IMG/VR virus record: IMGVR_UViG_3300021979_000001
Coordinates: 393,166-457,165 of that record
Length of the DNA: 64,000 bases
From: a virus
Lineage: Duplodnaviria; Heunggongvirae; Uroviricota; Caudoviricetes
Direction: 5' to 3' (one strand)
In this document: piece by piece, positions 46,941 through 64,000 of the stretch
Layout of the letters: each line of letters starts with the position of its first letter
Numbering within the stretch: position 1 is the stretch's first letter
Notes under the pieces: generated by a model
The model's input: the letters and a program-made list of their open reading frames with translations, nothing else
Told to the model about the DNA's origin: nothing
Databases searched by the model: none
Made by a program: the position numbers and the translations under genes

Positions 46941-47480
46941 TCACGATATTTTCAGGTTCATTACCAAATGTGTGCGAATATTGTTTGGATCGAAATTCAC
47001 GGCTGAATGACGTTTATCCGCGTTAATGACATAAAGCTGTCCGTCTGCCGGGATATGGATCAGTTGATTGTTTTCTGCATAGGCAATATACGCATATTCA
47101 TTCGTTTTCAATGCAAGATGCACCCGGTATTCGCCAGGACCATCAATGTGCATTGAATAGCATCGTTTAGGCGGGATTTGCATCAACCGCATCCGGGTGA
47201 CGGGTAGAAGATGGCGAACTGCTTCCAATGCGGTTCCTTTGATCATCGAATGCATGACCGTAAAGTCATCTTCATTCAACCCAGACATAGGGTATCCTGT
47301 TGCATATCGGTTCCCAATACCCTGATATGGGTCGTCGCGATCATGATCCGGGGTATTCAGCAAACAAAGCTGGTTATGCTTGTTAAAAGGAAATTGTTTG
47401 ATGAACTCAAATGCAATCCGTTTAATATCATCAAAATTCTGAACCATAATCCCGGTAGCATCAACAAATTCTGATTTCAT
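46941..47480 (-). CDS. Asp/Asn beta-hydroxylase-like 2OG-Fe(II) oxygenase
   Basis: RMRLM...YSMHID (HxD)...RVHLAL...HSAVN...RTHLV; ATGA-coupled to the upstream B12 rSAM. Confidence 0.7.
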   Translation of the reverse strand: MKSEFVDATGIMVQNFDDIKRIAFEFIKQFPFNKHNQLCLLNTPDHDRDDPYQGIGNRYATGYPMSGLNEDDFTVMHSMIKGTALEAVRHLLPVTRMRLMQIPPKRCYSMHIDGPGEYRVHLALKTNEYAYIAYAENNQLIHIPADGQLYVINADKRHSAVNFDPNNIRTHLVMNLKIS

Positions 47481-49000
47481 TTTGTGCGTCCTTCATAAAC
47501 AAATTCAATAATTTCCTTCATTTCGGAAGAAATATTATCGCCTTTGATAAGATAATAATCTTTTCGAAACGCCCCGCCATCGCCCCCGGCGTAGGACTGT
47601 GATAATCCATTTTCGATTAATCGTTTATGAAATCGAAAATATCGTTCAATTCTGGTTGCATAATCATTATCACCACATGCCCAGGATTTTGTGAAATCAT
47701 CATTTGTAACCAACGCGGTATACGAGATGCCATAATGTTCAGGATCGTCACCTACTGGACTACCTGGTAAAACACGCATTGGGTTGTTCAAATTGATGTC
47801 AACTAATGTTTTATATTGTGGCAAACGATCAATAAAATCAAGTGTTTTTACAAAATCATCTTCTGTTTCGGTTGGATACCCCACAATCATTAACGGGACG
47901 AATTTGATGCCGGTTCGTTCAAAATTATCAAGCATATTGAATAAACTAACATCATCGAATGGTTTGAGCATATCTGCCCGAACCCGTTCTGAACCGGATT
48001 CAATCCCGATTGAAACCAGATCAACCCCGGCATCTTTCATCTGATCAAATAATTCTGGTGGCATTTGTTTGTGATGTCGGCATATGAATTGACCGTGCCA
48101 AATAAGTTTTTTTCCGTATCCTCGTTTGACTAGAGTTTCACATTGTTCTCTAAACACTTTCGGGTTGCCGTTAAGCAACGAATCGGTAAACCGGAATTTA
48201 TCCACCCCATAGGTATCGTAAAGATGAATCATTTCATTTGCGATGTCGGTTCCGGTTTTGGTCTTGAATGTCGGCCAAATGCTGGCAACGTCACAGAAGG
48301 TGCATGATCTAACACATCCGCGTGATCCCGCCATATAAACCCATTTGTTGGGACCAGGATTGTTTTCAGTGACCGAGGTGTGTTTTTTTGGATATTGTGT
48401 GAAGTCAAAATCAGAATAATCTGGTGGTATATGACGAAATTCGGAATCAAAATTACTTACGGTGAAACTGTTTGTTGTTGTCAGTGTTCCTGACAGATAT
48501 TGACCAATCGCTGACTCACAATTTCCATAAATATAGTCATCAAACAGGTTTCCAATTTTTGAAAATTCCTGTTCACAAAATTCTTTATTGCGAATAGATA
48601 TACCAGGTCCACCCAACACGATCTTTGTTGATGGGAAATATTCGCGCAATAACCCCAGCATAATAGGTAAAGGTTGGAAGGTAAGAACTGAAAATAGACT
48701 AATCCCGATAACCTTCGGGTTATACGGAACTATTTCTTCCCTAATCGCTTGGTGTAATAAACTGTGAACATCATTCATATTGGCGTCAATGGTATTTCGA
48801 TCAAACCACATGCTGTCATTATATGACCACCAATGACCTAATCCCATGACAACGAGTTTGCGCCATAACCAAATGTTCAAGTCAAAAGCCCTGGTGGTAA
48901 AGCCATCATGTTCTGCACATGCTTTTAATTGCGCCAGGGCCAATGATGGTGCGCGCAAATCAACTTTAGGCAGGTTCAATACAAACAAATCAACCATCAT
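47477..49000 (-). CDS. B12-binding (class B) radical SAM enzyme
   Basis: APSLALAQLKA...GISLFS...VLGGPG; GSRGCVRSCTFC; FTDSLLNG; IGIESGS; VGYPTET; paralogous to 35149-36651. Confidence 0.88.
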   Translation of the reverse strand: MMVDLFVLNLPKVDLRAPSLALAQLKACAEHDGFTTRAFDLNIWLWRKLVVMGLGHWWSYNDSMWFDRNTIDANMNDVHSLLHQAIREEIVPYNPKVIGISLFSVLTFQPLPIMLGLLREYFPSTKIVLGGPGISIRNKEFCEQEFSKIGNLFDDYIYGNCESAIGQYLSGTLTTTNSFTVSNFDSEFRHIPPDYSDFDFTQYPKKHTSVTENNPGPNKWVYMAGSRGCVRSCTFCDVASIWPTFKTKTGTDIANEMIHLYDTYGVDKFRFTDSLLNGNPKVFREQCETLVKRGYGKKLIWHGQFICRHHKQMPPELFDQMKDAGVDLVSIGIESGSERVRADMLKPFDDVSLFNMLDNFERTGIKFVPLMIVGYPTETEDDFVKTLDFIDRLPQYKTLVDINLNNPMRVLPGSPVGDDPEHYGISYTALVTNDDFTKSWACGDNDYATRIERYFRFHKRLIENGLSQSYAGGDGGAFRKDYYLIKGDNISSEMKEIIEFVYEGRTK

Positions 49001-50073
49001 TGTTTGAGACGCGCCAGGGTTTGTTCATTAAGGTCAATTCCCGTTGGATTTTTTATCATAAATATTGCCTCGTTATATCCGTTATTATACGATCTATATA
49101 TCTGGCGACGTGTTGGACATTCAATCAAGGTAATTGCCGTTGGTTTCAAATCTAACAGTTTGTTTATCACATTTTTAGATACCATATTACTGTTAACTAT
49201 TTTTTTTGCTACCGAATTTGAGTGCGGAACATTATATATACCAACACATACGTTATTTAAATATAACCCAAGGATGATTTTTAATTGTGTGGTTGATGAA
49301 AGTTGTGGTTTAAGGGTGTTAAACAATTCGAATATTTTGTTTTTATCGGCATGATACATGGATTCAAGTATCGCGATCATTTTTAATTGCTGTGATGATT
49401 TCTTCATATACAAGATCAAATCTGGATAATGTTCGATAAGTATAGTTAATTCAATATTTGTGAAAAGATTTATATTTTCAGCAAATAATTCGAACATTCG
49501 TTTTTTGTATTTATTGCATAATTTGAGCGAATATATCGACGTGTTTTCTGGGTAATTAAACTCTAAAAATCGCAACCGATGAATGATCATGGTAATAATA
49601 TATTTGTTTTTGATGCCCATATCATTTAATTCAAACGCGATTTTAAAAACTTCTTCACTCGTATAATCTTTACAGTTTCTTTCATTAAAATAACGAAATA
49701 ATAATAATAATGCGTTATTGTCAATATTTTTTATATTGAAAATATTACGTGGATTTCTTTCAAATAATATGACTAATATTAAAGAACTAACGGTTTGATA
49801 ATGCATATAAATATCAGGGAAAATATGCATAATTGCTAACTGGGTGTGATTTGTGATTCTTTTGTTAGTCACGTATGTGGCGAACAGTTTATACAATTGA
49901 TCCATCACGTCTGGATGATGTGATTTTAGTTTTTCGATTGAACAGTTTGGATGCTTGCTATATTTTAAAAATTTATTGGATAACTCACTTGCTGTAATGT
50001 GCCCGCGTTTAATCGCAAGTTCTGCGGATGTAATGAACTTGATTTCCACCTTGTGCAATTGAATAAATTCCAT
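48997..50073 (-). CDS. Helical-repeat protein, family D
   Basis: P.LI.Y...P repeats; C-terminal YNNGY..AIF.I.NPT..D.N.Q.LA.L. Confidence 0.7.
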   Translation of the reverse strand: MEFIQLHKVEIKFITSAELAIKRGHITASELSNKFLKYSKHPNCSIEKLKSHHPDVMDQLYKLFATYVTNKRITNHTQLAIMHIFPDIYMHYQTVSSLILVILFERNPRNIFNIKNIDNNALLLLFRYFNERNCKDYTSEEVFKIAFELNDMGIKNKYIITMIIHRLRFLEFNYPENTSIYSLKLCNKYKKRMFELFAENINLFTNIELTILIEHYPDLILYMKKSSQQLKMIAILESMYHADKNKIFELFNTLKPQLSSTTQLKIILGLYLNNVCVGIYNVPHSNSVAKKIVNSNMVSKNVINKLLDLKPTAITLIECPTRRQIYRSYNNGYNEAIFMIKNPTGIDLNEQTLARLKQ

Positions 50074-50078
50074 GGTTT

Positions 50079-51041
50079 TTATTCTCGCAATTTTGCCAAT
50101 GTTTGGTTGATTTTATCATTGTCATCAGGGTTAGTAATGAGCCAAATGGCAGGATCATAACCTGCGTCAAAAGATACATATATTAATTTCTTGCTGGGGT
50201 TTTTTATATACATTATTGCTTTAGGGTTTTCTTGCAAATAAGATATAACAGTATCCTGTGTTATTAACGGATTATTTAGATAATTATAATTTAACGATAA
50301 TGCAAATTTCTGGTTTTCGGGTGAAAGTGATTGCACGTTTTTTAAACCAGTAAACATCTCTTGTGAATTAAATATTGCGACTCTTATCAAATAATCAGAT
50401 GGATTGTCTATATATTCGACAAAACATGGGTTAACTTTCGCTAACATTATTATTTGATCAGTAGAATAATTGCGTGCTAATATTTTATTAGCAATCCGGG
50501 TTTCGTTACGTTTAACGATTTTGGATGATTTATTGGTTCTTAACAGTAATAATACCGCAGTATCTAACAATATTGTTGATTGATCTAATAACAAGTAAAA
50601 ATTGAACAATTTCGTCAATTTGACCGATTTGGGTTGTGATAATTGTCCTGCGAGAATTACGTTTGCTAAAACATCAAGAACCTCTGTTGTTACTGACAGA
50701 CTGTTAATCTTAATAATCTTGGTTGGGTCGTTTTGTAAATATTCTTTAATTACAATGGGATGAATTTTATTGCACTTGTTAATGTATGATTCATCGAATT
50801 TAACCAATTCGATTTGGCATTCAACTGATAACTCAACATGTTTCACGATTATGTCGAGTTTATCTTCGAATGATTGTAATGACAAACTCGCCGCATACAA
50901 TGAGTTGCTGGATTTTAACGAATTTAAACCACTCAAAACGTGGTATAATTTTAATTGGTTTAAATTTTCAATTGGACATTGAATAATGTGCGTAAAGTCA
51001 GGGTAAATATGATTGGATACTAAATCTGACACTGCGAACAT
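50079..51041 (-). CDS. Helical-repeat protein, family D
   Basis: Same C-terminal module. Confidence 0.7.
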   Translation of the reverse strand: MFAVSDLVSNHIYPDFTHIIQCPIENLNQLKLYHVLSGLNSLKSSNSLYAASLSLQSFEDKLDIIVKHVELSVECQIELVKFDESYINKCNKIHPIVIKEYLQNDPTKIIKINSLSVTTEVLDVLANVILAGQLSQPKSVKLTKLFNFYLLLDQSTILLDTAVLLLLRTNKSSKIVKRNETRIANKILARNYSTDQIIMLAKVNPCFVEYIDNPSDYLIRVAIFNSQEMFTGLKNVQSLSPENQKFALSLNYNYLNNPLITQDTVISYLQENPKAIMYIKNPSKKLIYVSFDAGYDPAIWLITNPDDNDKINQTLAKLRE

Positions 51042-51046
51042 TAATT

Positions 51047-52027
51047 TTAGTCCTGTTTTAATTTGGTCATAATCTGCTTATTTATATCTTGTTTTGTTGG
51101 ATTGGTCAATAAAAAGATAGCATCACGATACCCGTTATTATACGCAGCATACACTTGGCTACGGGTTGGGTTGGTTATATGAATAATCAATTCGGGGTTA
51201 TGTTTAATAATTTTTGTTTTAACCGCATTTGAAATTAAGTTTGTTTTTAAAAACAGAGGACACTGTGATCCAATTTGGTATTGTGAACCAGTGGGCAGCG
51301 TTTTTAGTGATAATGCTGTTTCAGGAATATTATAATATGCATCAATGATATTCTGAATGCTTGGATGTTTAATATACATAATAAATTCTGGGGATAATCT
51401 TAAAATTTTGGTATATAGATGCCGATCAGTGCTATTAATGGTTTTTGCAGCAATTTCCATTAATTTATGTTTAGAATCGTCATCGTAGTTACCTGTATAA
51501 CCACAACACTTACTTAATAGTGATATAGTAACACTGTTGTCATAAAACCCGTATGACAAATATGTTTCTATTACCTGACTGATATTGGCGTGATTACCAT
51601 TCAAAATCGTATAAAAATAATAGAATAATTGTTCTTTGGTTGGGTTGGTAAACAATTTAATGACGGACAGTTCTTTTCTGATTGCGATACAAAAATTTTC
51701 TGATGTGAGATTTGATATACTGCCCGCCAAATGTGGAAATTCAGATACTAACCGTTTTTGATATAGCGCGTTGATTGACATGTTTACCAACATATCACTA
51801 ATATATTCCTGGAATGAAATATATAGTTTATCTTGATCCGTAAGGTTCGAGTCCAGCGTCTTTTTGTCATTCCATATAAGATTGATATTAAACGATGTTA
51901 TCTGTGTTACTACATCAATAACATGCTCAATATTTTTGTTGTCCGGTGACCGCAAAATTGTTTTAATATTATTGATAATATTGTTATCATATTGTTTAAG
52001 AACAGAAAAATTTTTCATTGCCATCAA
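51047..52027 (-). CDS. Helical-repeat protein, family D
   Basis: Close paralogue of 52080-53093 (LKTLP.GSQY, VKTKIIK..PELI.HI). Confidence 0.72.
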   Translation of the reverse strand: MMAMKNFSVLKQYDNNIINNIKTILRSPDNKNIEHVIDVVTQITSFNINLIWNDKKTLDSNLTDQDKLYISFQEYISDMLVNMSINALYQKRLVSEFPHLAGSISNLTSENFCIAIRKELSVIKLFTNPTKEQLFYYFYTILNGNHANISQVIETYLSYGFYDNSVTISLLSKCCGYTGNYDDDSKHKLMEIAAKTINSTDRHLYTKILRLSPEFIMYIKHPSIQNIIDAYYNIPETALSLKTLPTGSQYQIGSQCPLFLKTNLISNAVKTKIIKHNPELIIHITNPTRSQVYAAYNNGYRDAIFLLTNPTKQDINKQIMTKLKQD

Positions 52028-52079
52028 TCCTTCTTCACCATGTTATCTTGATTTATATCAAACATTTGGTGCTGCCATT

Positions 52080-53093
52080 TTATCGTTGCAATTTAGTTAA
52101 AACCTGTAAATTAATGTCGTGTTTTGTTGGATTGGTCAACAAAAAAATAGCATCATGATACCCGCTATTATATGCGGCATATATTTGATTACGGGATGGC
52201 TTGTTTATATGATTAATCAATTCAGGGTCGTTCTTGATTATTTTTGTTTTAACAGAATCAGAAATCAAACTTGTTTCTAATAATCGGTGACATGTTGAAC
52301 CCAGTAAATATTGTGATCCAGCCGGTAATGTTTTTAGTTGCAAAGGCATTGTTGAATTTATAAAATACGAAGAAATAATATGTTTAGTTGTTGGTTTTTT
52401 GACATATAAAATGATTTCTGGGTATAACGATATGATAGAATCAATATATTGGGTATCCGTGGGTTTAATCGTTTTCGCGGCAACCGATAATAACTGGTGT
52501 GGTATATCACCATATCTATTATACGTATAACACGTTTTTAATAAGAGGCATGTTATTTTTGTGTCATAATAACCATATGATAAGTATACATCACATATAT
52601 GCCTAAATTCTTTACGATTAATACTGGTATTAATTATAGAATAAAACTCCGATAATTGTGCTTTGGTAGGTTTATTGAAAGTTTTGATACGCGTTATATC
52701 GCCACGTATCAGGGTCTCAAATTCAGTTATTGACAAATTATTTATATAACAAGCCAGAGAAGGAAATTCAGTTAATACCACTTTTCGTTGTGATTTTGAT
52801 AATTTTGCATTCACCAAATTAACACGTATATATTCTTCGAACTGACTATATGTTTTATTGTAAACATCCAATTTAACATCCACAAACATTATGTGTTTTT
52901 TAGACAACTCGTTAAAACAAGTTATCTGATCTATCACAGAAATGATTTGGTTTATATTATCACTTCTGTTATGATTTATAACTTCATTGATATTATCAAT
53001 GATATAATTTTGATATTTTTTAAATACCCGATTGGTGGATTTGTAACAATCATACGTTATAATACTTGCAGATACGTTTTTCATTGAAAACAA
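52080..53093 (-). CDS. Helical-repeat protein, family D
   Basis: Close paralogue of 51047-52027. Confidence 0.72.
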   Translation of the reverse strand: MFSMKNVSASIITYDCYKSTNRVFKKYQNYIIDNINEVINHNRSDNINQIISVIDQITCFNELSKKHIMFVDVKLDVYNKTYSQFEEYIRVNLVNAKLSKSQRKVVLTEFPSLACYINNLSITEFETLIRGDITRIKTFNKPTKAQLSEFYSIINTSINRKEFRHICDVYLSYGYYDTKITCLLLKTCYTYNRYGDIPHQLLSVAAKTIKPTDTQYIDSIISLYPEIILYVKKPTTKHIISSYFINSTMPLQLKTLPAGSQYLLGSTCHRLLETSLISDSVKTKIIKNDPELINHINKPSRNQIYAAYNSGYHDAIFLLTNPTKHDINLQVLTKLQR

Positions 53094-54339
53094 TTCCTTT
53101 CAACTGGGCTAAGCACCATAAATGATAATGTTCTTTGGTTGGGGATTTGATTAAGTTATATGCCGGGGTGAAACCATTTTTTAATGCAACAACACACATT
53201 TCTTCGGTTGGTTCTGCAATATAAGATAATATGCATGGTGATATTGCAAGTTGTTCTAAAGTGGTATCAACATCAATCCATTCTGAATCAAACATATAAC
53301 TTGGTGTATCAATAAATTCATCTATTAATGTTTTATCCATTAACTCAACATTAACAAAACGTTGTAAGATACATGAGCATATTATTTTTTTATTGTCATT
53401 ATGTATTTTGCTGATCTTATATAACAAGTCGTCATCATATAATATGGCATCAATAACAGGCTCAAGACTCGTATATCCTAATCCTTCATTTACGGGCAAA
53501 CGCTCTTGTGATGACGACGCATCATATGTATATACAACGATTGTAGTTAAATTATCGTAGATTGTAATAAATGCACTACCATCATATAGACCTGGGGTAA
53601 GTAAATAATTCGTTATAATTTCACAAAGTTCTTTACTAAAGTCTGTGTGCGGTATTTCTTTTTCCTCTATTATGTCGTTAAAAATAGCTAATATTGACGT
53701 ATGTCCCGCATCTATCATTTGATTAAATATACGGATAAGGTAATTGTTTAAAGCTGGCATTCCACCTGCATCAAAAATTTTATTACAATAATCAGATAGG
53801 TTTGTTGATACAATGTATGCTGAAGTTTTATAACCAATCTCGTCGGTATCACTACCATCATCTATTATGTTTGATGCATTTATTAAAGCATATGATCGAA
53901 TTAACCATTTATTATCACTTCGCATATAATCGCAATAGTGTTTCACATATCTGAAAAATGCGGGGGCAATTTTTACGAGTTCAATTATTGGGTTAATTAA
54001 ATCCTTTTTAAAGGAAAACCCATCGTCATTCTTTATGAATATGTTGAATTTGTTCTGTGTGGTTTGATATATAATTCCACCAATAACATAATTAATATGT
54101 TGTTTATACTTTACAATATTGGTCAATAACGGTTGATTGATTGAATCAATATCGTAAAATATGGTAAATTGTTCAGTGATCAAATTAAAACACTTTGCCA
54201 TTATTATAACAGATGACATATCATATTTTTTTGTGAATGGTTTACTAATCATATTTCCATTTTGATCAAATGAAATATTGATCATTTTACATAAAACAGA
54301 TGCGTATTTATGGTAATGTAATAATTCGAGTTTTTTCAT
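53050..54339 (-). CDS. Hypothetical protein with family D-type C-terminus
   Basis: YIAEPTEEMCVVALKNG...LIKSPT...LAQL (DUF4116-like repeat). Confidence 0.65.
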   Translation of the reverse strand: MKKLELLHYHKYASVLCKMINISFDQNGNMISKPFTKKYDMSSVIIMAKCFNLITEQFTIFYDIDSINQPLLTNIVKYKQHINYVIGGIIYQTTQNKFNIFIKNDDGFSFKKDLINPIIELVKIAPAFFRYVKHYCDYMRSDNKWLIRSYALINASNIIDDGSDTDEIGYKTSAYIVSTNLSDYCNKIFDAGGMPALNNYLIRIFNQMIDAGHTSILAIFNDIIEEKEIPHTDFSKELCEIITNYLLTPGLYDGSAFITIYDNLTTIVVYTYDASSSQERLPVNEGLGYTSLEPVIDAILYDDDLLYKISKIHNDNKKIICSCILQRFVNVELMDKTLIDEFIDTPSYMFDSEWIDVDTTLEQLAISPCILSYIAEPTEEMCVVALKNGFTPAYNLIKSPTKEHYHLWCLAQLKGIVFNEKRICKYYNV

Positions 54340-54706
54340 TTGGTAGTTTCCATTCCGGCACATTAATATTCAAATGGTTTTCAAACCACAACGCTACAAT
54401 ATGGCGATGACAAAAATCACCAGGCTTTTCAAAACATAGCAAGGCAATATCTGGGCCATATAACGATATTAGGTTGTTATATACTTGATGCGGGTCTAAT
54501 TTGTTTAGAATTTCATCTTGAAAAAGAAGGATATATTCTTCATCGTTAATAATATCATCCTTTGCTGCAATCAAAATTTCTTTGGTAGGTGCCAGTGTTT
54601 TAAACACTGGCCCTCTATACCATTTTGGCGGGAATATTGAGATTGCGACATGCGGTATCTTCAATACATCGAGATATTTACACATCGCATAGTAAGATGT
54701 AACCAT
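54308..54706 (-). CDS. DUF488-family protein
   Basis: TSYY...AIS..PP.WY.G...LAP...ALLCFEKPGDFCHRHIVA.W. Confidence 0.7.
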   Translation of the reverse strand: MVTSYYAMCKYLDVLKIPHVAISIFPPKWYRGPVFKTLAPTKEILIAAKDDIINDEEYILLFQDEILNKLDPHQVYNNLISLYGPDIALLCFEKPGDFCHRHIVALWFENHLNINVPEWKLPNEKTRIITLP

Positions 54707-56100
54707 CAGTCAAATATTGCGTTCATTTCTGGGAAAATGGTTTTCCAATTAGTTCCTCGAACTTTATCTGCCTGTTCCAAAAACTCTTTCATTTCTGGTA
54801 GCCGGTTTGACCAGTCTTCGGATTTCATGAATTTGATCATACCTTTTAACCGGGAAATTCCGTATTTGTGTTCCAACCATTCATCTTTTGTCGCATTCCC
54901 AATATTGGTGGTTTGGCTCCAATTAAGTTCCAACCATTTATAAAATTCGTTATATTTGGCTTCGGTTTTTTCTTTGAACCACGTTGGTAGAATTTTAACA
55001 TTAAGATGTGGCGGATGATAAACGAAATGGTAATTGATCATTCCACTACCGAGAGGCCACGGATTGATTTTTTTGAAATTCTGTTCGAGTTTCCACCGAA
55101 TGAAATCGGGCAAATAATAGATGTTGAGTGCCTGGACCGCACACGCAATTGTAACTTCGATATGATCTGGTGTATCATCCAGTAACCGAAATTGCTTTTC
55201 GATATGACTCCAATCGGAAGGATACCGAATATAATTGTTCATTTCTTCAATACTATCGATTGAAAAATGAAAACGCACACGTTTGAATTTTTCCCAAATT
55301 GCAAACAATCGATCAGGTAGTTCAATACCATTTGAATTATACCGTAATTCGATTTGACTGGCATATCCCCGACGAATCACTTCTTCAAGCAAGGTGTAAT
55401 GTTCTTCGATGATCGTGGATTCTCCACCCGCAAAATATAATTGACGCATATGCGGGATTTGATCATAAAGCTGATCCCAGAAATCCGGGTTCTGTTTGTG
55501 CCAATTGTAACTGGCACCATGCAATTTGCCTTTATTTTCCCATTGCATGGTTTCTTTAAGATTGGAGTTCGTGATTTCAGGAAACATTTTTTGCCAGTCG
55601 GGCACCCATTGTGATGAATCATGCGGACTACACATGATACATGCCAGGTTACATTTCGTTCCCATACGAAGATCAATGTATTGTATTTTTGGGGGGATGC
55701 TACCATCCTCGGCGGTTTCATCAACCAATTTTTGGACATCAACTTCCATTTGTTTCATCCAATAATTAGTTTCCCACATCCGTTTACTGATATGTCCCGA
55801 TTCTTCTTCACGAAAACATTTAAGACACGATGGGGGTTTTTCACCCTTTAACATTTGGGTGCGAACATTGCGCATATATTGATTGTTCCACGAATCCATC
55901 AAGGTTGTCGTATTCAAATTTGCAGGTTTTCCATCTGCATTTTTAAGAACACCAACTTGACCGCCATGCTCTTTATCATTGGTGGGACCAACACTTGATG
56001 CATTGGCCGTGCAACAAACTCGCATCGACCCATCAGGTCTGGTTGAAAGATGAATCCAGGGAAGAATACAAAAAGTGTCTCTCGGTATTTCACGTGACAT
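54706..56100 (-). CDS. Radical SAM enzyme with N-terminal twitch/SPASM-like Cys domain
   Basis: FCILPW...RVCC...C.KC N-terminal cluster; CNLACIMC; FAGGE; YNSNG; FSID. Confidence 0.9.
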   Translation of the reverse strand: MSREIPRDTFCILPWIHLSTRPDGSMRVCCTANASSVGPTNDKEHGGQVGVLKNADGKPANLNTTTLMDSWNNQYMRNVRTQMLKGEKPPSCLKCFREEESGHISKRMWETNYWMKQMEVDVQKLVDETAEDGSIPPKIQYIDLRMGTKCNLACIMCSPHDSSQWVPDWQKMFPEITNSNLKETMQWENKGKLHGASYNWHKQNPDFWDQLYDQIPHMRQLYFAGGESTIIEEHYTLLEEVIRRGYASQIELRYNSNGIELPDRLFAIWEKFKRVRFHFSIDSIEEMNNYIRYPSDWSHIEKQFRLLDDTPDHIEVTIACAVQALNIYYLPDFIRWKLEQNFKKINPWPLGSGMINYHFVYHPPHLNVKILPTWFKEKTEAKYNEFYKWLELNWSQTTNIGNATKDEWLEHKYGISRLKGMIKFMKSEDWSNRLPEMKEFLEQADKVRGTNWKTIFPEMNAIFD

Positions 56101-56422: not shown

Positions 56423-56719
56423 TTATCGATAAATAGTAATACCCTTGCCATTTCCGTGCCCATAACCTAATCCCATTCCGATCCCGAACCCAGAATCATA
56501 TCCATGAGCAACAGAAAAACCCTGACCAATGCCCGCCCCATCGGCATATTCATAGTTTGAGTATTCACCACTATAACTAGTGCCATCACCCTCCATAAAC
56601 GTATGATTTCTGCTACTGCCACAATAATATGGGCCATTACTATGCAAACATAAATTAGAGTTATGTAACCGTATTGTCATGGTTAAACTTTTTGTTTGAT
56701 CATCATTAATAACTGACAT
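56423..56719 (-). CDS. Gly-Xaa array peptide (diverged)
   Basis: MTIRLH-type leader; GAGIGQG...GFGIGMGLGYGHGNGKG. Confidence 0.65.
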   Translation of the reverse strand: MSVINDDQTKSLTMTIRLHNSNLCLHSNGPYYCGSSRNHTFMEGDGTSYSGEYSNYEYADGAGIGQGFSVAHGYDSGFGIGMGLGYGHGNGKGITIYR

Positions 56720-56745
56720 ATGGTTATAACTTGGTTCAATGCATA

Positions 56746-56922
56746 TTAGGGGTAACCGGCTCCGGCACCGAAATCATCACCATAACCAACACCATATCCC
56801 ACACTATAACCTTTTTCGGAACCGCACCCATCGTTGGAATTGTGACCATAGCCGAAACCCTGGTCCTCACTCATACCATAATCATACGAAAAATGGTTTA
56901 CCTTTGTTCTAAATAAGGTCAT
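56746..56922 (-). CDS. Gly-Xaa array peptide (58 aa, below ORF-track cutoff)
   Basis: Hand translation MTLFRTKVNHFSYDYGMSEDQGFGYGHNSNDGCGSEKGYSVGYGVGYGDDFGAGAGYP. Confidence 0.65.
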   Translation of the reverse strand: MTLFRTKVNHFSYDYGMSEDQGFGYGHNSNDGCGSEKGYSVGYGVGYGDDFGAGAGYP

Positions 56923-56950
56923 TTATTAAATCGGTTCATGACTGATTGTT

Positions 56951-57250
56951 TTATCTGGCATATGCAATAATACTACTACCGCAATCTTCACCATAGCCCT
57001 CACTACCCCCTAATCCAGAACTATCGCCGCATCTCATTCCTTTACCACACCCGATCCCACGAGCAATAACCATATAATATCTAAAATCACAAATTTTACT
57101 AATACCAAAACAATCTCCTTCGCATTCTCCTTCGCCGTGCCCATAATTATGAGTTTGTATATCATCACTGGGTGCGTTAACAAAATCACCAACATGATGA
57201 TGACCGTGGCTATAATTTATATTACTATATGTGGTTTCAATTGTCATCAT
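56951..57250 (-). CDS. Gly-Xaa array peptide (diverged)
   Basis: YGHGEGECEG...GIGCGKG...GYGEDCG. Confidence 0.6.
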   Translation of the reverse strand: MMTIETTYSNINYSHGHHHVGDFVNAPSDDIQTHNYGHGEGECEGDCFGISKICDFRYYMVIARGIGCGKGMRCGDSSGLGGSEGYGEDCGSSIIAYAR

Positions 57251-57330
57251 AAGCTGTAACTGACCATCTTTACATGGATTTGTTTATTTGAATAAAACAA
57301 TAAAAAGGTATAACCATTTATTTCATTATG

Positions 57331-57576
57331 TTAATCCTCGGAACCATTATTATACCCATATCCATAACCAGACCCTTTCAGGTAACCATCCTGGTTCTTA
57401 TATAATCCACCAGCCCCGGTTCCATAACCATACTCATGTAGTCCATCTACCGTAGGTTGGGTATAACCATTACCCATGCCAACGCCGCCACCATCGGCAT
57501 GTATTAATATACCATTCTCGATCTTATTCCGAATATCACACCCAATATGGTATTTTAGCATAATGCATATATACAT
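57331..57576 (-). CDS. Gly-Xaa array peptide (diverged)
   Basis: MYICIMLKYH leader; GVGMGNGY...GSGYGYGYNNG. Confidence 0.65.
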   Translation of the reverse strand: MYICIMLKYHIGCDIRNKIENGILIHADGGGVGMGNGYTQPTVDGLHEYGYGTGAGGLYKNQDGYLKGSGYGYGYNNGSED

Positions 57577-57653
57577 AATTGCATTGTCCAGTGTTAATCA
57601 TTATGATTTTAATATATATTATTCGGAACCATTAATTATTTCATCCAAATAAC

Positions 57654-57851
57654 CTAATCAAAATCACCTAATCCTGCCCCATCCCCATTATTATAACCGG
57701 CGGTGTCGTAAACTCCTTGACCAAAACCAACCCCGGATGCAATGCCCGAACCATACCCTTCACCGTCGCCGTAGTAATCATCGCGGTAAGAATGAATATC
57801 GTGAATATCACCAGAATTGGCACAAAATAGCAAACGCATTGAACTATTCAT
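57654..57851 (-). CDS. Gly-Xaa array peptide (diverged)
   Basis: MNSSMRLLFC leader; YGDGEGYGSG...GDGAGLGDFD. Confidence 0.6.
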   Translation of the reverse strand: MNSSMRLLFCANSGDIHDIHSYRDDYYGDGEGYGSGIASGVGFGQGVYDTAGYNNGDGAGLGDFD

Positions 57852-57907
57852 TTCGGTATTCAACATTGGGTTACTATACCATACCATTAGTTGATGATAC
57901 CATACCT

Positions 57908-58066
57908 TTAATCAAACCCAGACCCATGCCCATAAATGTTGCCACCGCCATAGCTGTGATCCTCTCCCCATACTATCGCCGAACGCATATCATACCCATG
58001 ATCACAACTACAACCTTCGCCTAGGTCATTATCACAGATAAGTTTGCTGGTAAACCCCCACACCAT
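57908..58066 (-). pseudogene. Degenerate array copy
   Basis: MVWGFTSKLICDNDLGEG...YGHGSGFD; the central Gly-Xaa pattern (YAFGDSMGRGS) lies in a different frame. Confidence 0.45.
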
Positions 58067-58101
58067 TTACTAATTTTATTTCCCCTGGATCATAGTAATG
58101 G

Positions 58102-58293
58102 CTAGTTTTCACTCGCCAAGTCCAGATAGCGATACCCAGACCCATCCCCGGAGCCATACCACCCCCCGTAACCATGACCATCTCCGCGACCAGCATCATC
58201 ACCATAACCTTCGCCTTCGCCAAATCTATTCTCATATTCATCGACATAATCAGTAACGTTTGTTTTATTAAAATAAAATAAAAGTATCGTCAT
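58102..58293 (-). CDS. Gly-Xaa array peptide
   Basis: MTILLFYFN leader; FGEGEGYGDDAGRGDGHGYG. Confidence 0.7.
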   Translation of the reverse strand: MTILLFYFNKTNVTDYVDEYENRFGEGEGYGDDAGRGDGHGYGGWYGSGDGSGYRYLDLASEN

Positions 58294-58294
58294 T

Positions 58295-58513
58295 TTAACA
58301 AGAACTCCCTTTCACGGAACCAGCACCATATATTGCGCCATAACTGTTTCCCCTGCTGGAAGTTCGACCATACCCAAACGTTCCTCCATTAATTTGTCCG
58401 ATGGCATCTCCTTTTCCACTACCACAAGTGTTATTAAGGTTGTCTCCGAGATTAATATTATCATACTCATATGATTGATCTGCACAATAATATAACGCAA
58501 TAGGTGTTTTCAT
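58295..58513 (-). CDS. Gly-Xaa array peptide
   Basis: MKTPIALYYC leader; Gly-periodic core. Confidence 0.65.
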   Translation of the reverse strand: MKTPIALYYCADQSYEYDNINLGDNLNNTCGSGKGDAIGQINGGTFGYGRTSSRGNSYGAIYGAGSVKGSSC

Positions 58514-58561
58514 TATGGTGTTGTCTATAAAATTCGTTGTGTATTTTTATTATCAATGGTG

Positions 58562-58801
58562 TCAGTTATAGACATCATGTCCATACCCATCCCCGGAACC
58601 ATAACAATCCCCATAACGACAACCATGACCGAAACAACCACCATTATTGCCATTGCCATAACTATATCCATAGATACCCCCGACACTACAGTTACTACCC
58701 GCACCAGATATAAAATTATTTCCGCTTCCCTCGGTAGAACCAACACAATACGATAATGTAATTAGACTAATATTCCAAGTTAATTTACCAGAATTATACA
58801 T
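58562..58801 (-). CDS. Gly-Xaa array peptide
   Basis: Start reassigned to MYNSG; core YGYSYGNGNNG...YGSGDGYGHD. Confidence 0.6.
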   Translation of the reverse strand: MYNSGKLTWNISLITLSYCVGSTEGSGNNFISGAGSNCSVGGIYGYSYGNGNNGGCFGHGCRYGDCYGSGDGYGHDVYN

Positions 58802-58814
58802 CCGCTTAGTTTCA

Positions 58815-59006
58815 TTATTCACGACCGTCTCCATATCCCTGACTATCTCCATAATCATTACCAGCACCATCACTATTACCATCACCCTTACCATAACTAT
58901 AACCAGTATTATCGCCAGAGCTATACAACCAACCTCGCCCCCAGATATTATTATTATTAGTTAGGTTCAATTCATTGTTATGGTATAAATTTATTGATAT
59001 GGTCAT
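58815..59006 (-). CDS. Gly-Xaa array peptide
   Basis: MTISINLYHN leader; ends GDGRE. Confidence 0.72.
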   Translation of the reverse strand: MTISINLYHNNELNLTNNNNIWGRGWLYSSGDNTGYSYGKGDGNSDGAGNDYGDSQGYGDGRE

Positions 59007-59135
59007 TTTCAGTTTTTCCCGATGCAAAATATTCAATTTATTTGACTGGACCTTTGAATAAAACTAGAGTGATGACAAATTGTTATGTGGTAGTATCAAT
59101 ACCATATAGTCGAACAATACATGAATAATAAGTTG

Positions 59136-59402
59136 TTATGTATATGCTGACCCATTTCCCGAACCATTTCCCGAACCATTATTAAACCCATGCCCGGTTC
59201 GTCTGATCAAACCATGTATATAGCTTGGATTGCTAGTCGGACTGTTATCGGAATTATTCGGCGAACCATAACCATTCCCACCACCTTTGATGTATCCAAA
59301 ACCATCACTGAAACCATCGCCGAAACCAGAGCCATTCATCTCCGTAAAGACATCGGAAAGAAAATCATGAGATAATAATATGTTTTGGTTCATTGGTGTC
59401 AT
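59136..59402 (-). CDS. Gly-Xaa array peptide
   Basis: MNQNILLSH leader; GSGFGDGFSDGFGY. Confidence 0.68.
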   Translation of the reverse strand: MTPMNQNILLSHDFLSDVFTEMNGSGFGDGFSDGFGYIKGGGNGYGSPNNSDNSPTSNPSYIHGLIRRTGHGFNNGSGNGSGNGSAYT

Positions 59403-59533
59403 TCCCTAACGAAAATCAGCATGGATCGTGTGACATCCGGTATAGCAATTATTATTGTTGTCCAGGCCCGTCCCTCACCTCGCGCACATGGATTGAAACG
59501 TTCCATAATGCCATATAAATTATCACATTATTT

Positions 59534-59812
59534 TTAAAGGTCACCAATCCCAATACCATCCCCATCACCAAATCCATGGCTATCACCTGTAGTATATCCA
59601 TTTCCCCAACCATTTCCATCACCACCGTCATCCTCATTTGAACGGGTAAATTTCCGCCGAGGATGAACATATCCATGCCCATAATTCAAAGTTGCTTCAT
59701 AACCAGCACCATTGCCACGACCGAACCCGGTGCCATTATCACGATTATAGTCAACTTGGTTAGTATTGTCATAACATGTTGTTATTTGTAAATTCAGCAT
59801 CATAGCATCCAT
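59534..59812 (-). CDS. Gly-Xaa array peptide
   Basis: MNLQITTCY-type leader; GDGNGWGNGY...GFGDGDGIGIG. Confidence 0.7.
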   Translation of the reverse strand: MDAMMLNLQITTCYDNTNQVDYNRDNGTGFGRGNGAGYEATLNYGHGYVHPRRKFTRSNEDDGGDGNGWGNGYTTGDSHGFGDGDGIGIGDL

Positions 59813-59849
59813 TAATAAATGTGGTAATCAATAATTAAACACACCCAGT

Positions 59850-60003
59850 CTATATTCTTCGAGTAGTATTGAACTCTGCGCCGTTCCCAAAACCATCAGA
59901 ACACCCATACGGTAACGTAGAACCGTGACCATATATATTCACCATATTCGTTCGATTTTGAAACAGAAATATTATGGTAATACAATTGCATGTTTATATC
60001 CAT
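59850..60003 (-). pseudogene. Frameshifted array copy
   Basis: MDINMQLYYHNISVSKSNEYGEY, then a frameshift at the (AT)4 run ~59931-59938; the other frame continues YGHGSTLPYGCSDGFGNG. Confidence 0.65.
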
Positions 60004-60215
60004 TAATTGTTGCACCAATTTTCATAACCACGACCATAACCATAACCACAACTTTCACCATCTCCATTCTCATTCCCACTGCCATTGCCGGAACCACTAT
60101 CGGATTTACAAGCGGAATCACACGCGGACCCATATACATATTCATTATACTAATAATGTTCATTCACATGTGATGCCGAAACGTTATAATAATATAATCA
60201 TATGCGTTTAGTCAT
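60003..60215 (-). pseudogene. Array copy with two in-frame stops
   Basis: MTKRI*LYYYNVSASHVNEHY*YNEYVYGSACD...GSGNGSGNENGDGESCGYGYGRGYENWCNN. Confidence 0.68.
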
Positions 60216-60359
60216 TATATGTTAATTCCATCGCTACCACCATCACTTGAACAATAGCCTTCATTATTACCATTGCCATGACTGCTACCAACACTACTAA
60301 TCTGACCAGCGATAGAATAATCTTCGTTGATATAATAATATTGGTTTATATATGGTCAC
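60215..60359 (-). pseudogene. Frameshifted array copy
   Basis: GTG ACC ATA TAT, then a frameshift to NQYYYINEDYSIAG...HGNGNNEGY; preceded by a diverged copy of the array spacer. Confidence 0.55.
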
Positions 60360-60438
60360 ACTAGTTCCCACCAGGTAATAAAACTAAGTTAGACCACAAA
60401 CGTTTCAAGTGCTGCATCATTAGACCACATACATTGTA

Positions 60439-60705
60439 TCATGTTGATTGACCACCACAAGACCCTTTACCGAAACCAATCCCACCCCCTTGAATAAATC
60501 CATCCCCAAACCCATCCCCCGAACCATAACCCCGACCTTGACCGTCGTCGCACTTATTACCGGAAACAGAACCATTTCCATTACTAAAATTATGGTTATA
60601 CACAAAACTAGAATCGGAACCAGAACCAGAACCAGAACCATACCCAAAAGTGGTTTCATTATTACATGCATTGAGACAAAACATATTGTTTATGGATGTA
60701 TTCAT
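60439..60705 (-). CDS. Gly-Xaa array peptide
   Basis: MNTSINNMFCLNACNNET leader. Confidence 0.78.
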   Translation of the reverse strand: MNTSINNMFCLNACNNETTFGYGSGSGSGSDSSFVYNHNFSNGNGSVSGNKCDDGQGRGYGSGDGFGDGFIQGGGIGFGKGSCGGQST

Positions 60706-60765
60706 AATTATCACATCAGGTAAAAATAAATTAAATCAGAAAACTGTTTCAAATAGTAATATCAA

Positions 60766-61071
60766 TTACGTGTAACCATTGTTATAACTAGCGCCATAAC
60801 CATATCCAAACCCATTACTACCCCCATACTCATCTCCATTCCCATCTCCATACCCATCACCATGCCCATAATGATAATCAAAACCATTAGCAGAACCATT
60901 ATCACTACCATAACCATGACCGGAACCAGAGCCATCCGCATCACCATCCGGTTCGCCATCCCAGGTAAGGGCAACGTCTCCCCAACCATTACCATACCTA
61001 CAATCATGCCCCGGAATGGTTTCATTATTACAGGCATTATTATAAAAAAAATTAGCTATAGATATATTCAT
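60766..61071 (-). CDS. Gly-Xaa array peptide
   Basis: MNISIANFFYNNACNNET leader. Confidence 0.8.
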   Translation of the reverse strand: MNISIANFFYNNACNNETIPGHDCRYGNGWGDVALTWDGEPDGDADGSGSGHGYGSDNGSANGFDYHYGHGDGYGDGNGDEYGGSNGFGYGYGASYNNGYT

Positions 61072-61101
61072 AATTCACGCACCTGGTGAAAATAAGTTAA
61101 A

Positions 61102-61266
61102 TCAGTCACAACCACGACCACCGCTATGACTAAAGCCAGAGCCAGAGCCAGAGCCAGAGCCATGTCTATAGCCGGTGCCATCATCGTTGCCATGTTCAGA
61201 ACCACAATTATAAACCTTTTTGGGTAGATTAGGTTCGTTATAATGCAAATTTATGGATGTATTCAT
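61102..61266 (-). CDS. Gly-Xaa array peptide (54 aa, below ORF-track cutoff)
   Basis: MNTSINLHYNEPNLPKKVYNCGSEHGNDDGTGYRHGSGSGSGSGFSHSGGRGCD. Confidence 0.78.
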   Translation of the reverse strand: MNTSINLHYNEPNLPKKVYNCGSEHGNDDGTGYRHGSGSGSGSGFSHSGGRGCD

Positions 61267-61318
61267 AATTGATCATTACCAGATAAAAAACAAATCACTC
61301 ATATTATAACTTGGGTTA

Positions 61319-61579
61319 TTACCCATTACTAGAAACCTTCCCCTTCCCAAATCCATAACCAAACCCACAACCACCGCCATGATTAACACCGGTGCCAGAG
61401 CCAGAACCATGCCCAGAACCATCCTCAATGCCATAACCATTACCATAACTATCCCCATAACTATCACCATAGCTATCCCCAAAACCATCCCCAAAACCAT
61501 CCCCATTCATATCACCGGACACATAACCATCATGTTGTGACCAGTATTTGATATAATTTAATTTTATGGATATATTCAT
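61319..61579 (-). CDS. Gly-Xaa array peptide
   Basis: MNISIKLNYIKYWSQHD leader. Confidence 0.82.
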   Translation of the reverse strand: MNISIKLNYIKYWSQHDGYVSGDMNGDGFGDGFGDSYGDSYGDSYGNGYGIEDGSGHGSGSGTGVNHGGGCGFGYGFGKGKVSSNG

Positions 61580-61609
61580 AATTCCCACACCGGATGAAAA
61601 TAAATTAAA

Positions 61610-61828
61610 TCAATCTGAAACACTACCACGACCATGACTAGAGCCAGAGTCAGAGCCAAATCCAGACCCATAACCAGACCCAATACCATAGCCACAATTA
61701 TCCCCGTCACCAGAACTTTGGCCCCATCCATAACCGGTTCCATCATAACTGCCAGGTTCAGAACCATAAGTATAAACCTTATTGGGAAAATTGGGTGCTT
61801 TATAATGCAATTTTATGGATATATTCAT
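61610..61828 (-). CDS. Gly-Xaa array peptide
   Basis: MNISIKLHYKAPNFPNKVY leader. Confidence 0.82.
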   Translation of the reverse strand: MNISIKLHYKAPNFPNKVYTYGSEPGSYDGTGYGWGQSSGDGDNCGYGIGSGYGSGFGSDSGSSHGRGSVSD

Positions 61829-61869
61829 AATTGGTCATACCAGGTAAAAAACAAATAGATTATATTAAA

Positions 61870-62118
61870 TTATAACTTTGGGTATTGCCCATTACTAGAA
61901 ACCTTCCCCTTCCCAAATCCATAACCAAACCCACGATCATTCCCATGACCATGACCATTCCCATCACCATGTCCATCCAAATAACTATAACTATACATAT
62001 TCGCACCATCCCCATCACCATAACCATAACCATAATCATCATTATTCACATCGCAAGACACATAATCATCATGGTGTGACCAGGCTTTGATATAATTTAA
62101 TTTTATGGATATATTCAT
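61870..62118 (-). CDS. Gly-Xaa array peptide
   Basis: MNISIKLNYIKAWSHHD leader. Confidence 0.82.
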   Translation of the reverse strand: MNISIKLNYIKAWSHHDDYVSCDVNNDDYGYGYGDGDGANMYSYSYLDGHGDGNGHGHGNDRGFGYGFGKGKVSSNGQYPKL

Positions 62119-62148
62119 AATTCACGCAACGGGCTAAAATAAGTTAAA

Positions 62149-62397
62149 TCAGTCACAACCATGACCGCGACCACGACCAACACCGGTGCCAGAGCCGTAA
62201 CCCGGACCATAACCATGACCATAGCCAGTGCCATGAGCAAAACCAGAACCATCCCCATTACCGTCCCCATCACCATAACCATCTCCATAACCATAACCAT
62301 AACCATCCCCATAACCGGAGCCATAACCATCACTAAACACATAACCATCATTGTATGAACTGGATTTGATATAATTTAATTTTATGTATATATTCAT
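62149..62397 (-). CDS. Gly-Xaa array peptide
   Basis: [12 protein letters not shown] leader; ends GHGCD. Confidence 0.82.
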
Positions 62398-62427
62398 AAT
62401 TCGCGCACTGGGTGAAAATAAGTTAAA

Positions 62428-62637
62428 TTATTCACACCCATTACCATCACCATGACCATAACCATCACCAGACACATAACCATGACCATAACCATCTCCA
62501 TAACCATAACCATAACCATCCCCATAACTATCACCATCGTTATCACCATAACCATGACCATAACCATCACCAGACACATAATCATCATCATCGTGTGACC
62601 AGGATTTGATATAATTTAATTTTATGGATATATTCAT
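62428..62637 (-). CDS. Gly-Xaa array peptide
   Basis: GGAGAGG SD; [17 protein letters not shown] leader; ends GCE. Confidence 0.82.
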   Translation of the reverse strand: MNISIKLNYIKSWSHDDDDYVSGDGYGHGYGDNDGDSYGDGYGYGYGDGYGHGYVSGDGYGHGDGNGCE

Positions 62638-62667
62638 GATACACCTCTCCGGTAACAATAATTTAAA

Positions 62668-62856
62668 TCATTCACAACCACTACCATACTCAATGCCATA
62701 ACCATTACCATCCCCATCATTATCCCCATAACCGGAGCCATTACCCTGACCATATTCATTACCATAACCGGAGCCATTACCATTCACATCACCAGACATA
62801 TAATCATCATGGTGTGACCCGTATTTGATATAATTCAAGTTTATGGATATAGTCAT
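62668..62856 (-). CDS. Gly-Xaa array peptide
   Basis: GGAG SD; MTISINLNYIKYGSHHD leader; ends GCE. Confidence 0.82.
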   Translation of the reverse strand: MTISINLNYIKYGSHHDDYMSGDVNGNGSGYGNEYGQGNGSGYGDNDGDGNGYGIEYGSGCE

Positions 62857-62886
62857 GATATGTCGCTCCGGTAAAAATAAGTTAAA

Positions 62887-62985
62887 TCATTTACAACCAC
62901 TACCATAACCATAACCATACCCATCCCCATCACCATTCACATCGCCAAACACATATTCATCATGGTGTGACATGGATATATTCAT
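62887..62985 (-). CDS. Minimal Gly-Xaa array peptide (32 aa) with in-frame leader deletion
   Basis: [32 protein letters not shown]. Confidence 0.7.
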   Translation of the reverse strand: MNISMSHHDEYVFGDVNGDGDGYGYGYGSGCK

Positions 62986-63015
62986 AATTCACGCAACGGG
63001 ATAAAATAAGTTAAA

Positions 63016-63252
63016 TCAGTCACAACCATGACCACGACCACGACCAACACCGGTGCCAGAGCCATAACCCGGACCATAACCATGACCATAGCCAGAGCCA
63101 TCACCATAACCATCTCCATCACCGTCCCCATCCCCATCATCATCGCCATAACCATCTCCATCACCTTCCCCATCACCATAACCATCACTAAACACATAAC
63201 CATCATCGTGTGACCAGGCTTTGATATAATTTAATTTTATGGATATATTCAT
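63016..63252 (-). CDS. Gly-Xaa array peptide
   Basis: MNISIKLNYIKAWSHDD leader; ends GHGCD. Confidence 0.82.
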   Translation of the reverse strand: MNISIKLNYIKAWSHDDGYVFSDGYGDGEGDGDGYGDDDGDGDGDGDGYGDGSGYGHGYGPGYGSGTGVGRGRGHGCD

Positions 63253-63282
63253 AATTGGCGCGCCGGGTGAAAATAAGTTAAC

Positions 63283-63531
63283 TCATTCACGACCACAACC
63301 ATAACCACCGCCATGACTAACACCAGAGCCAGAACCATCACCATTACTATAACCATCCCCCAAACCAGTCCCCGAACCATCCCCATTACCAGCCCCATCC
63401 CCATCACCATAACCATCCCCATTACCAGCCCCATCACCATAACCATAACCATTCCCATCCCCATCCCAATCATCATCGCCATCATGGTGTGACCAGGATT
63501 TGATATAATTTAATTTTATGGATATATTCAT
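63283..63531 (-). CDS. Gly-Xaa array peptide
   Basis: [17 protein letters not shown] leader; ends GCGRE. Confidence 0.82.
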   Translation of the reverse strand: MNISIKLNYIKSWSHHDGDDDWDGDGNGYGYGDGAGNGDGYGDGDGAGNGDGSGTGLGDGYSNGDGSGSGVSHGGGYGCGRE

Positions 63532-63561
63532 AATTCGCGCACTGGATGAAAATAAGTTAAA

Positions 63562-63828
63562 TTATTCACACCCATGACCACGACCATAACCATAACCATA
63601 ACTATCCTCAAATCCATTCCCATTCCCAAGCCCTCTCCCAAAAACATGACCGTCACCATTCCCCGAACCATACCCATTACCAGCCCCATTCCCATAATAT
63701 GAGACATAACCAGAACCAAAACCATCACCATTCCCAATACCAGAACCATTCCCATCCCCATCCCAATCATCATCGCCATCATGGTGTGACCAGGATTTGA
63801 TATAATTTAATTTTATGGATATATTCAT
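63562..63828 (-). CDS. Gly-Xaa array peptide
   Basis: [17 protein letters not shown] leader; ends GHGCE. Confidence 0.82.
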   Translation of the reverse strand: MNISIKLNYIKSWSHHDGDDDWDGDGNGSGIGNGDGFGSGYVSYYGNGAGNGYGSGNGDGHVFGRGLGNGNGFEDSYGYGYGRGHGCE

Positions 63829-63858
63829 AATTCGCGCACTGGGTGAAAATAAGTTAAA

Positions 63859-64000
63859 TTATTCACACCCACTACCATACTCAATACCAAAACCAGTCCC
63901 AAAACCAGTCCCCGAACCATCCCCATTACCAGCCCCATCCCCATCACCATCCCCATACCCATTACCGGCCCCATCACCATAACTATAATCATAACCATCC
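63859..64000 (-). CDS. Gly-Xaa array peptide (5' end outside window)
   Basis: ...DGYDYSYGDGAGNGYGDGDGDGAGNGDGSGTGFGTGFGIEYGSGCE* followed by the conserved spacer. Confidence 0.8.
   Translation of the reverse strand, partial: DGYDYSYGDGAGNGYGDGDGDGAGNGDGSGTGFGTGFGIEYGSGCE

Follow-up and report, generated by a model that had tools for sequence, protein, structure and literature searches.

A jumbo phage array of about one hundred glycine-alternating peptide genes, possibly the amplified partner of a DUF6948 gene

Tandem rows of paralogues in jumbo phages and large DNA viruses, known as gene accordions, expand by unequal recombination, and proteins with an Sm fold can carry low-complexity tails such as the RG repeats of SmD1/D3. 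The Hfq protein of Acinetobacter baumannii has a Gly-rich acidic tail (PMC11617691), an F/YGG-type Tyr/Gly motif binds nucleic acid and phase-separates (PMC9067507), and the GoF family of T4 is an example of a phage-encoded LSm-like fold (PMC12152347). Prochlorosin and SyncA libraries of precursors for peptides that are made on ribosomes and modified after translation (RiPPs) hold tens to more than one hundred leader-plus-variable-core genes per genome, with 79–143 copies for SyncA (PMC10783134). Here we describe an array of small genes encoding peptides in which about every second core residue is glycine (Gly-X genes). It occupies one end of a 64,000-nt stretch of viral DNA (positions 393,166–457,165 of IMG/VR record IMGVR_UViG_3300021979_000001; hereafter the window). 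In our view the array is best explained, at a probability of roughly 0.4, as the outcome of an accordion-like amplification of the Gly-X gene, the second member of a phage module in which it follows a DUF6948 gene. What is new in this locus is its scale, the loss of coupling to the partner gene and the age gradient of the copies; the survey of such arrays is likewise new.

The window is the final 64 kb of a 457,165-bp viral contig (G000:C1) of a jumbo phage, which encodes a T4-type Gp23 capsid protein and a phage ClpA nearest to those of Sinorhizobium phage Phosso, Atu_ph07 and GAP32-like jumbo phages (<52% identity). The nearest cultured phages by ClpA, Phosso, Atu_ph07, XbC2 and GAP32, lack the repeat. 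Between window positions 56423 and 64000 we found 29 co-oriented minus-strand units, namely 26 open frames (31–101 amino acids), two start-less remnants and one unit truncated at the contig end, while about 75 further units lie at the opposite contig end (G000:C1:13-21538). An earlier note on the window had claimed at least 29 tandem peptide genes running past its edge; this held, and the extension it called for raised the count to about 104 units over 29 kb, of which about 95 are intact and which make up about 6% of the genome. The figure of about 104 is the sum of the units counted up to the contig break on both ends. Since both ends fall within the array and no terminal repeat is present, the genome is most simply taken to be circular and broken there.

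Assemblies from ENA, JGI and Logan match C1:611-12479, C1:17429-21586 and window 56423-61887 at 99.9–100% identity; the array is therefore real and not an invention of the assembler. The old window block is identical in Logan SRR7168050/51, which includes a second run, and in ENA assemblies. The concern about an assembly artefact is thus dispelled for most of the array and persists for window 61888-64000 and C1:12480-17428, which are present in this contig only, the eight youngest window copies having no independent match. One JGI contig omits exactly one 236-bp unit, which may be a natural variant or a collapse. Such an array also explains why regions of this kind are left without annotation and interrupt assemblies.

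The 91 peptides catalogued across the array have a median length of 81 amino acids. The probability of finding Gly two residues after a Gly is 0.73 and one residue after it 0.03, as compared to about 0.36 for both in shuffles, which bears out the earlier description of a core with Gly at every second position. The cores consist of 36% Gly, 11.5% Asp, 11.5% Tyr, 9% Ser, 7% Asn and 5% His (4.7%), and a structure model of a peptide was disordered (predicted local distance difference test, pLDDT, 36). Pfam matches to TrAA12 and KRTAP were rejected as compositional, and off-frame Met-Val and antisense Thr-Ile open reading frames (ORFs) as shadows of the Gly frame.

The frames are held open by selection. 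The cores contain 636 Tyr codons, yet just one stop breaks into a Gly tract. The equivalent changes at the third codon position for Asp, Asn and His (E/D, K/N and Q/H) occur at ratios of 0.14–0.21, which predicts about 90–130 stops; even when all broken units (about 8) are counted, stops remain far too few. Of 841 occurrences of the motif GGNNATGG, 840 fall in the Gly frame. Ahead of the starts, the G fraction at -13 to -9 reaches 0.35–0.48, compared to 0.03–0.15 at most other positions, and the same position is used in the long ORFs of the genome; ribosome-binding-type spacers thus precede the units and translation is predicted. Gap lengths (42 of 64 multiples of three) are suggestive only, as the alignments are noisy. 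Taken from these sequence features, unit identity and coding status are very probable.

The genome holds a single DUF6948 (PF22253) gene (C1:22216-22611, E 2e-12), on the same strand as the units and about 0.7 kb upstream of the first one. Such single genes are regularly accompanied by Gly-X genes in other viruses: of 43 viral DUF6948 loci with room downstream, 40 are followed within 500 bp by a Gly-X ORF, compared to 4 of 54 in the upstream control. The start of the partner usually overlaps the DUF6948 stop, and it is mostly a single copy (one overlapping copy at 34 of 43 loci). Approached from the Gly-X side, 41 of 75 loci have DUF6948 upstream. A cultured example is Iodobacter phage PhiPLPE, in which an unannotated Gly-X gene overlaps the end of the DUF6948-like phiPLPE_84 (L317:1170-1410); Ralstonia phage NK-7 is another cultured phage with a single copy. 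The pairs of this type and the present locus have the same partner gene, the same Gly-(Tyr/Asp/Ser/Asn) core and the same order and strand. They differ in that the pairs usually have one overlapping copy, whereas the array comprises about 104 free-standing copies with their own ribosome-binding spacers and longer leaders. Thus, of the features of the module, the upstream same-strand gene and the leader with a Gly-alternating core rich in Tyr, Asp, Ser and Asn are present here and the stop-start overlap is absent. In one locus (L060:4912-5620), DUF6948 and a Gly-X tract form an in-frame fusion, and a second, free copy comes after it; being the sole fusion among 221 loci, this is weak evidence, and so is the blank result of a search for longer DUF6948 fusions. 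A literature search for DUF6948, glycine-rich jumbo-phage arrays or such motifs found no relevant paper, most subscription papers being outside its reach.

An AlphaFold2 model of the DUF6948 protein (pLDDT 84.8) has a helix and a five-stranded Sm fold. Essentially all top Foldseek and VIA matches of this model were Sm/LSm proteins, the best with a Z of 8.0 and a root-mean-square deviation of 2.0 over 66 residues, and we assign the protein with moderate confidence to an Sm/LSm-like, RNA-chaperone-like fold.

Several other features were observed around these genes. A 151–161-amino-acid gene without known function (L002:3609-4094, minus strand) sits between DUF6948 and the array, and the first and second array units are separated by an inserted Cys-rich gene for a putative zinc-binding protein of 128 amino acids (L002:2774-3160, minus strand). 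Genes for an NYN-domain nuclease and an EcoRV-like restriction endonuclease (L002:11245-12718) are located about 7 kb upstream of DUF6948. In other phages, some Gly-X partners are extended, either by an additional N-terminal domain containing a G-A-C motif or by a long domain at the C-terminus (L067, L100, L135, L147; L075, L099).

Amplification of Gly-X genes is recurrent, because arrays in other phages reach up to about 24 copies, and each has a leader of its own. Screening with a DNA pattern that describes Gly-X genes in tandem gave 67 IMG/VR loci, a count that includes redundant samples and comes from a pattern tuned to AT-rich arrays, so that the survey is incomplete; 59 of these loci have at least two genes and 28 at least five. 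The leaders are often combined with a fixed end; 25 loci contain DUF6948 and none a radical S-adenosylmethionine (SAM) motif. Whole-record counts gave about 19, 17 and 22–24 copies. Arrays of 10–24 genes with private leaders and fixed ends were found at L375 (G002), L353, L346 (G004), L323, L380 (G006) and L379, and in L323 and G004 the partner gene lies within the array. At the head of the G013 array, a small gene missed by Pfam is DUF6948-like in the ESM Atlas (29 of 30 matches, TM 0.76), while hhalign gave no link between it and DUF6948; similar-looking small genes, judged by eye only, lie next to the G004 and G006 arrays. The next largest array found is about a quarter the size of the present one.

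The units in the window fall into blocks of different age:

61319-64000, minus strand: young block of 11 Gly-X genes, most with an MNISIKLNY-type leader and 30-nt spacers, sharing 20-mers with other copies
63859-64000 (cut by the contig end), 63562-63828, 63283-63531, 63016-63252, 62887-62985 and 62668-62856, minus strand: units of the young block
62428-62637, 62149-62397, 61870-62118, 61610-61828 and 61319-61579, minus strand: remaining units of the young block
63532-63561, minus strand: example of the repeated spacer, with a U-rich tract at -24 to -18 and a G-rich patch in the Shine-Dalgarno position at -13 to -9 ahead of each start
60439-61266, minus strand: three intermediate copies (61102-61266, 60766-61071, 60439-60705), present in independent assemblies
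60003-60354, minus strand: two broken units that lack start codons (about 60218-60354; 60003-60149)
56423-59945, minus strand: old diverged block of 13 open Gly-rich frames, with no 20-mer in common with any other copy and several uncertain start codons
59850-59945, 59534-59812, 59136-59402, 58815-59006, 58562-58801, 58295-58513 and 58102-58293, minus strand: frames of the old block
57908-58066, 57654-57851, 57331-57576, 56951-57247, 56746-56922 and 56423-56719, minus strand: remaining frames of the old block
54706-56100, minus strand: gene with SPASM/twitch and radical SAM domains (Pfam PF13186/PF04055), downstream neighbour of the array

Across the whole array, the youngest copies lie in the middle and the old ones at both ends: the terminal copies share no 20-mer with any other, and up to 94% of the 20-mers of central copies recur in others. 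Together with about 8% dead copies, this age gradient points to birth and death of units. Exact core tracts of 30–72 nt are shared by 34 gene pairs, 19 of them across leader families and many far apart, as compared to none in shuffles. Some mosaics could be assembler joins, although other assemblies reproduce the regions in which most of the tracts are found. The pattern fits growth via unequal recombination and segment exchange between the repeated spacer/leader cassettes and the GGN-NAT hexamer tracts. A diversity-generating retroelement was rejected, as no reverse transcriptase (PF00078) was found in the genome by a search in which controls matched. The array resembles gene accordions in its apparent birth and death by unequal recombination and differs from them in scale, with about 100 genes that take up 6% of the genome, and in that its products are disordered micro-proteins.

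No two of the 91 peptides are identical. Together with the tracts of at least 30 nt shared between 34 pairs (19 across leader families; null 0) and with the amplification in many phages, every array having a private leader and often a fixed end, this variety would be expected of a diversified decoy or inhibitor library, in which each peptide titrates a host target (an RNA chaperone, a protease or an anti-phage sensor) and host range selects for variety. The narrow core alphabet, largely one mutation from NAT codons, and the same composition in all phages speak against this explanation, and no sign of positive selection emerged; we consider it unlikely. An identical amino-acid pattern is encoded by differing Gly codons across phages, which counts in favour of the DUF6948 module explanation. 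The narrow alphabet, independent of the phage, favours composition over sequence when a combinatorial library is weighed against simple dosage. The earlier idea of a maintained library with one partner thus survives in part: frames are kept open, tracts are shuffled and DUF6948 is a specific partner gene, while its RiPP version is not supported, as set out below.

The near-invariant leader of about 17 residues described earlier applies to the youngest family, being retained at 13–17 of 17 positions in only 8 of the 25 window genes having a start; array-wide there are at least seven leader families. Likewise, ends of the type G-C-E/D/K or G-R-E occur in 9 of 25 window genes and are a minority feature overall (10 of 91). 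The exact leader DNA was not found elsewhere in IMG/VR, and a leader profile, as the earlier note had proposed, matched just seven copies among 1.84 billion representatives, all from this genome, which marks the leader family as private to this phage. A tblastn search of cultured phages with one peptide gave no match with the low-complexity filter on. On a spanning tree, the leader ratio of nonsynonymous to synonymous differences (pN/pS) is 0.92 overall, so that leader constancy is mostly due to recent duplication; Ile5 and an aromatic residue at 8–10 are retained with synonymous variation in 73 of 91 array genes and 21 of 33 old ones, compared to 14 of 367 other ORFs, which suggests constraint confined to a few positions (Ile5 and an aromatic near 9).

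The same ratio, the roughly eight dead units, the assembly lacking one unit and the other paralogue rows in the phage would agree with near-neutral runaway duplication, in which hexamer repeats and cassettes act as recombination hot spots, the majority of copies serve as dispensable filling of a genome packaged by the headful mechanism, and selection only keeps translation harmless. This seems quite unlikely, since old copies without a common 20-mer are still open and Gly-periodic and keep the leader motif (21 of 33), stop codons are strongly depleted and 29 kb have been retained.

On the opposite strand, the youngest leader DNA (window 61548-63825, plus strand; e.g. 63797-63825) contains a sigma-70-like TTGATA-17-TATATT sequence with a perfect extended -10 element (TGATATAAT), and 16 of 27 plus-strand genome copies of TGATATAAT fall within the array. 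These promoter-like sites may reflect hitch-hiking of AT-rich codons or antisense transcription.

Almost all peptides (89 of 91) are net acidic, with a median net charge of -7. The earlier picture of a core that is acidic first and basic last applies to a minority, the second half being net basic in only 13 of 91. The charge, the Asp (11.5%) and His (4.7%) contents of the cores and a low-confidence resemblance to RTX calcium-binding repeats could indicate a bulk metal- or cation-binding polyanion with Asp-Gly and His-Gly runs, or a structural matrix, independent of the Sm-fold protein. Such a function would leave the tight DUF6948 linkage unexplained; moreover, the model has a pLDDT of 0.39, no signal peptide was seen and ATAAATA late boxes are not enriched (3 in 29 kb, coding strand). 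We regard it as decidedly unlikely.

The radical SAM gene at 54706-56100 (SPASM, PF13186/PF04055) is co-oriented with the array and lies 322 bp downstream of it, and Asp, Tyr and Gly are known radical SAM substrates. With a leader, a variable core and about 100 copies, comparable to the 79–143 of SyncA libraries (PMC10783134), the array could be read as a RiPP precursor library matured by this enzyme, in line with the earlier comparison to prochlorosins. Homologues of the enzyme tell otherwise: none of 37 homologous radical SAM loci carries a Gly-X ORF, none of 59 other Gly-X arrays has a radical SAM motif in its locus, and the gene is one of 15 scattered in the genome, so that it is probably not part of the system. 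YcaO, C39 (PF03412) and PqqD (PF05402) domains had no match in the genome; neither had LanC (PF05147), for which control genomes did not match either. Given the lack of co-occurrence and of a PqqD match, the array also departs from radical SAM/SPASM RiPPs of the ranthipeptide, sactipeptide or epipeptide type, in which precursors are found with their maturase and with an RRE/PqqD domain. A double-Gly directly after the leader of about 17 residues occurs in 4 of 91 peptides, and 28 of 91 lack Cys. The array resembles prochlorosin and SyncA libraries in gene number and differs from them by the absence of a C39 protease/transporter, by a short leader in place of a long Nif11-type one that closes with double-Gly, and by a low-complexity core, a single tandem arrangement and a phage location; a LanM-type or other maturase was not found in the genome searches (the LanC search lacking a working control). 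Maturation as a RiPP library is thus highly improbable. In the same part of the window (30236-56100), radical SAM genes occur with partner enzymes, namely a B12-binding protein (47477-49000), a hydrolase (43922-44875), a hydroxylase-like protein (46941-47480) and DUF488-N3a (54308-54706). A second row of paralogues at 48997-54363 (minus strand) comprises five genes of 320–437 amino acids without a Pfam match and with a common C-terminal motif, two of them 45% identical.

The explanation of the array as an amplified partner of DUF6948 has to be weighed against several observations. The match to the Sm fold scores moderately (Foldseek E about 0.02; Z not above 8), and fold similarity does not by itself show that DUF6948 binds RNA. 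In this genome, a terminator-like hairpin and the 151–161-amino-acid gene separate DUF6948 from the array, so that the coupling is lost. A K[IV] leader start is found in 2 of 91 peptides here as opposed to 54 of 80 partners of the closest DUF6948 homologues, and the leader pN/pS is 0.92 overall. Pairing a single Sm gene with about 100 peptide genes makes for an odd stoichiometry. Finally, no DUF6948 was detected with the 24-copy array of G002, a genome 41% complete.

By analogy with the Acinetobacter Hfq tail and with Tyr/Gly motifs, one can tentatively propose how the amplified peptides would act with the DUF6948 protein. They would be acidic, disordered polypeptides studded with Tyr/Phe and would form a detached arm of low complexity for the Sm-fold protein; a short hydrophobic N-terminus would dock on that protein, the core would contribute multivalent stickers together with acidic charge that competes with RNA, and copy number would mainly raise the dose for phage RNA handling or formation of ribonucleoprotein (RNP) condensates. 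The likeness to Sm, LSm and Hfq proteins with tails lies in the pairing of an Sm fold with a disordered Gly-rich, aromatic and acidic chain. Here, the chain is a separate gene, multiplied a hundredfold and with strict Gly-X alternation, and for DUF6948, whose fold comes from a model, ring formation and RNA binding are putative.

The array is the largest expansion found of a widespread phage module, with about one hundred disordered micro-protein genes held open by selection, and the recurrent amplification in other phages suggests that copy number is a selected trait. If the Sm-fold protein is indeed the partner, phages would gain a dose-tunable RNA chaperone or condensate system. A more far-reaching and doubtful extension is that phages tune an Sm-protein system by gene accordion, with the number (one to about one hundred) and the variety of separately encoded, disordered Gly-X chains setting the capacity of an RNP condensate or decoy pool; such a pool would take over host RNA control or defence, and the present jumbo phage would be its extreme case.

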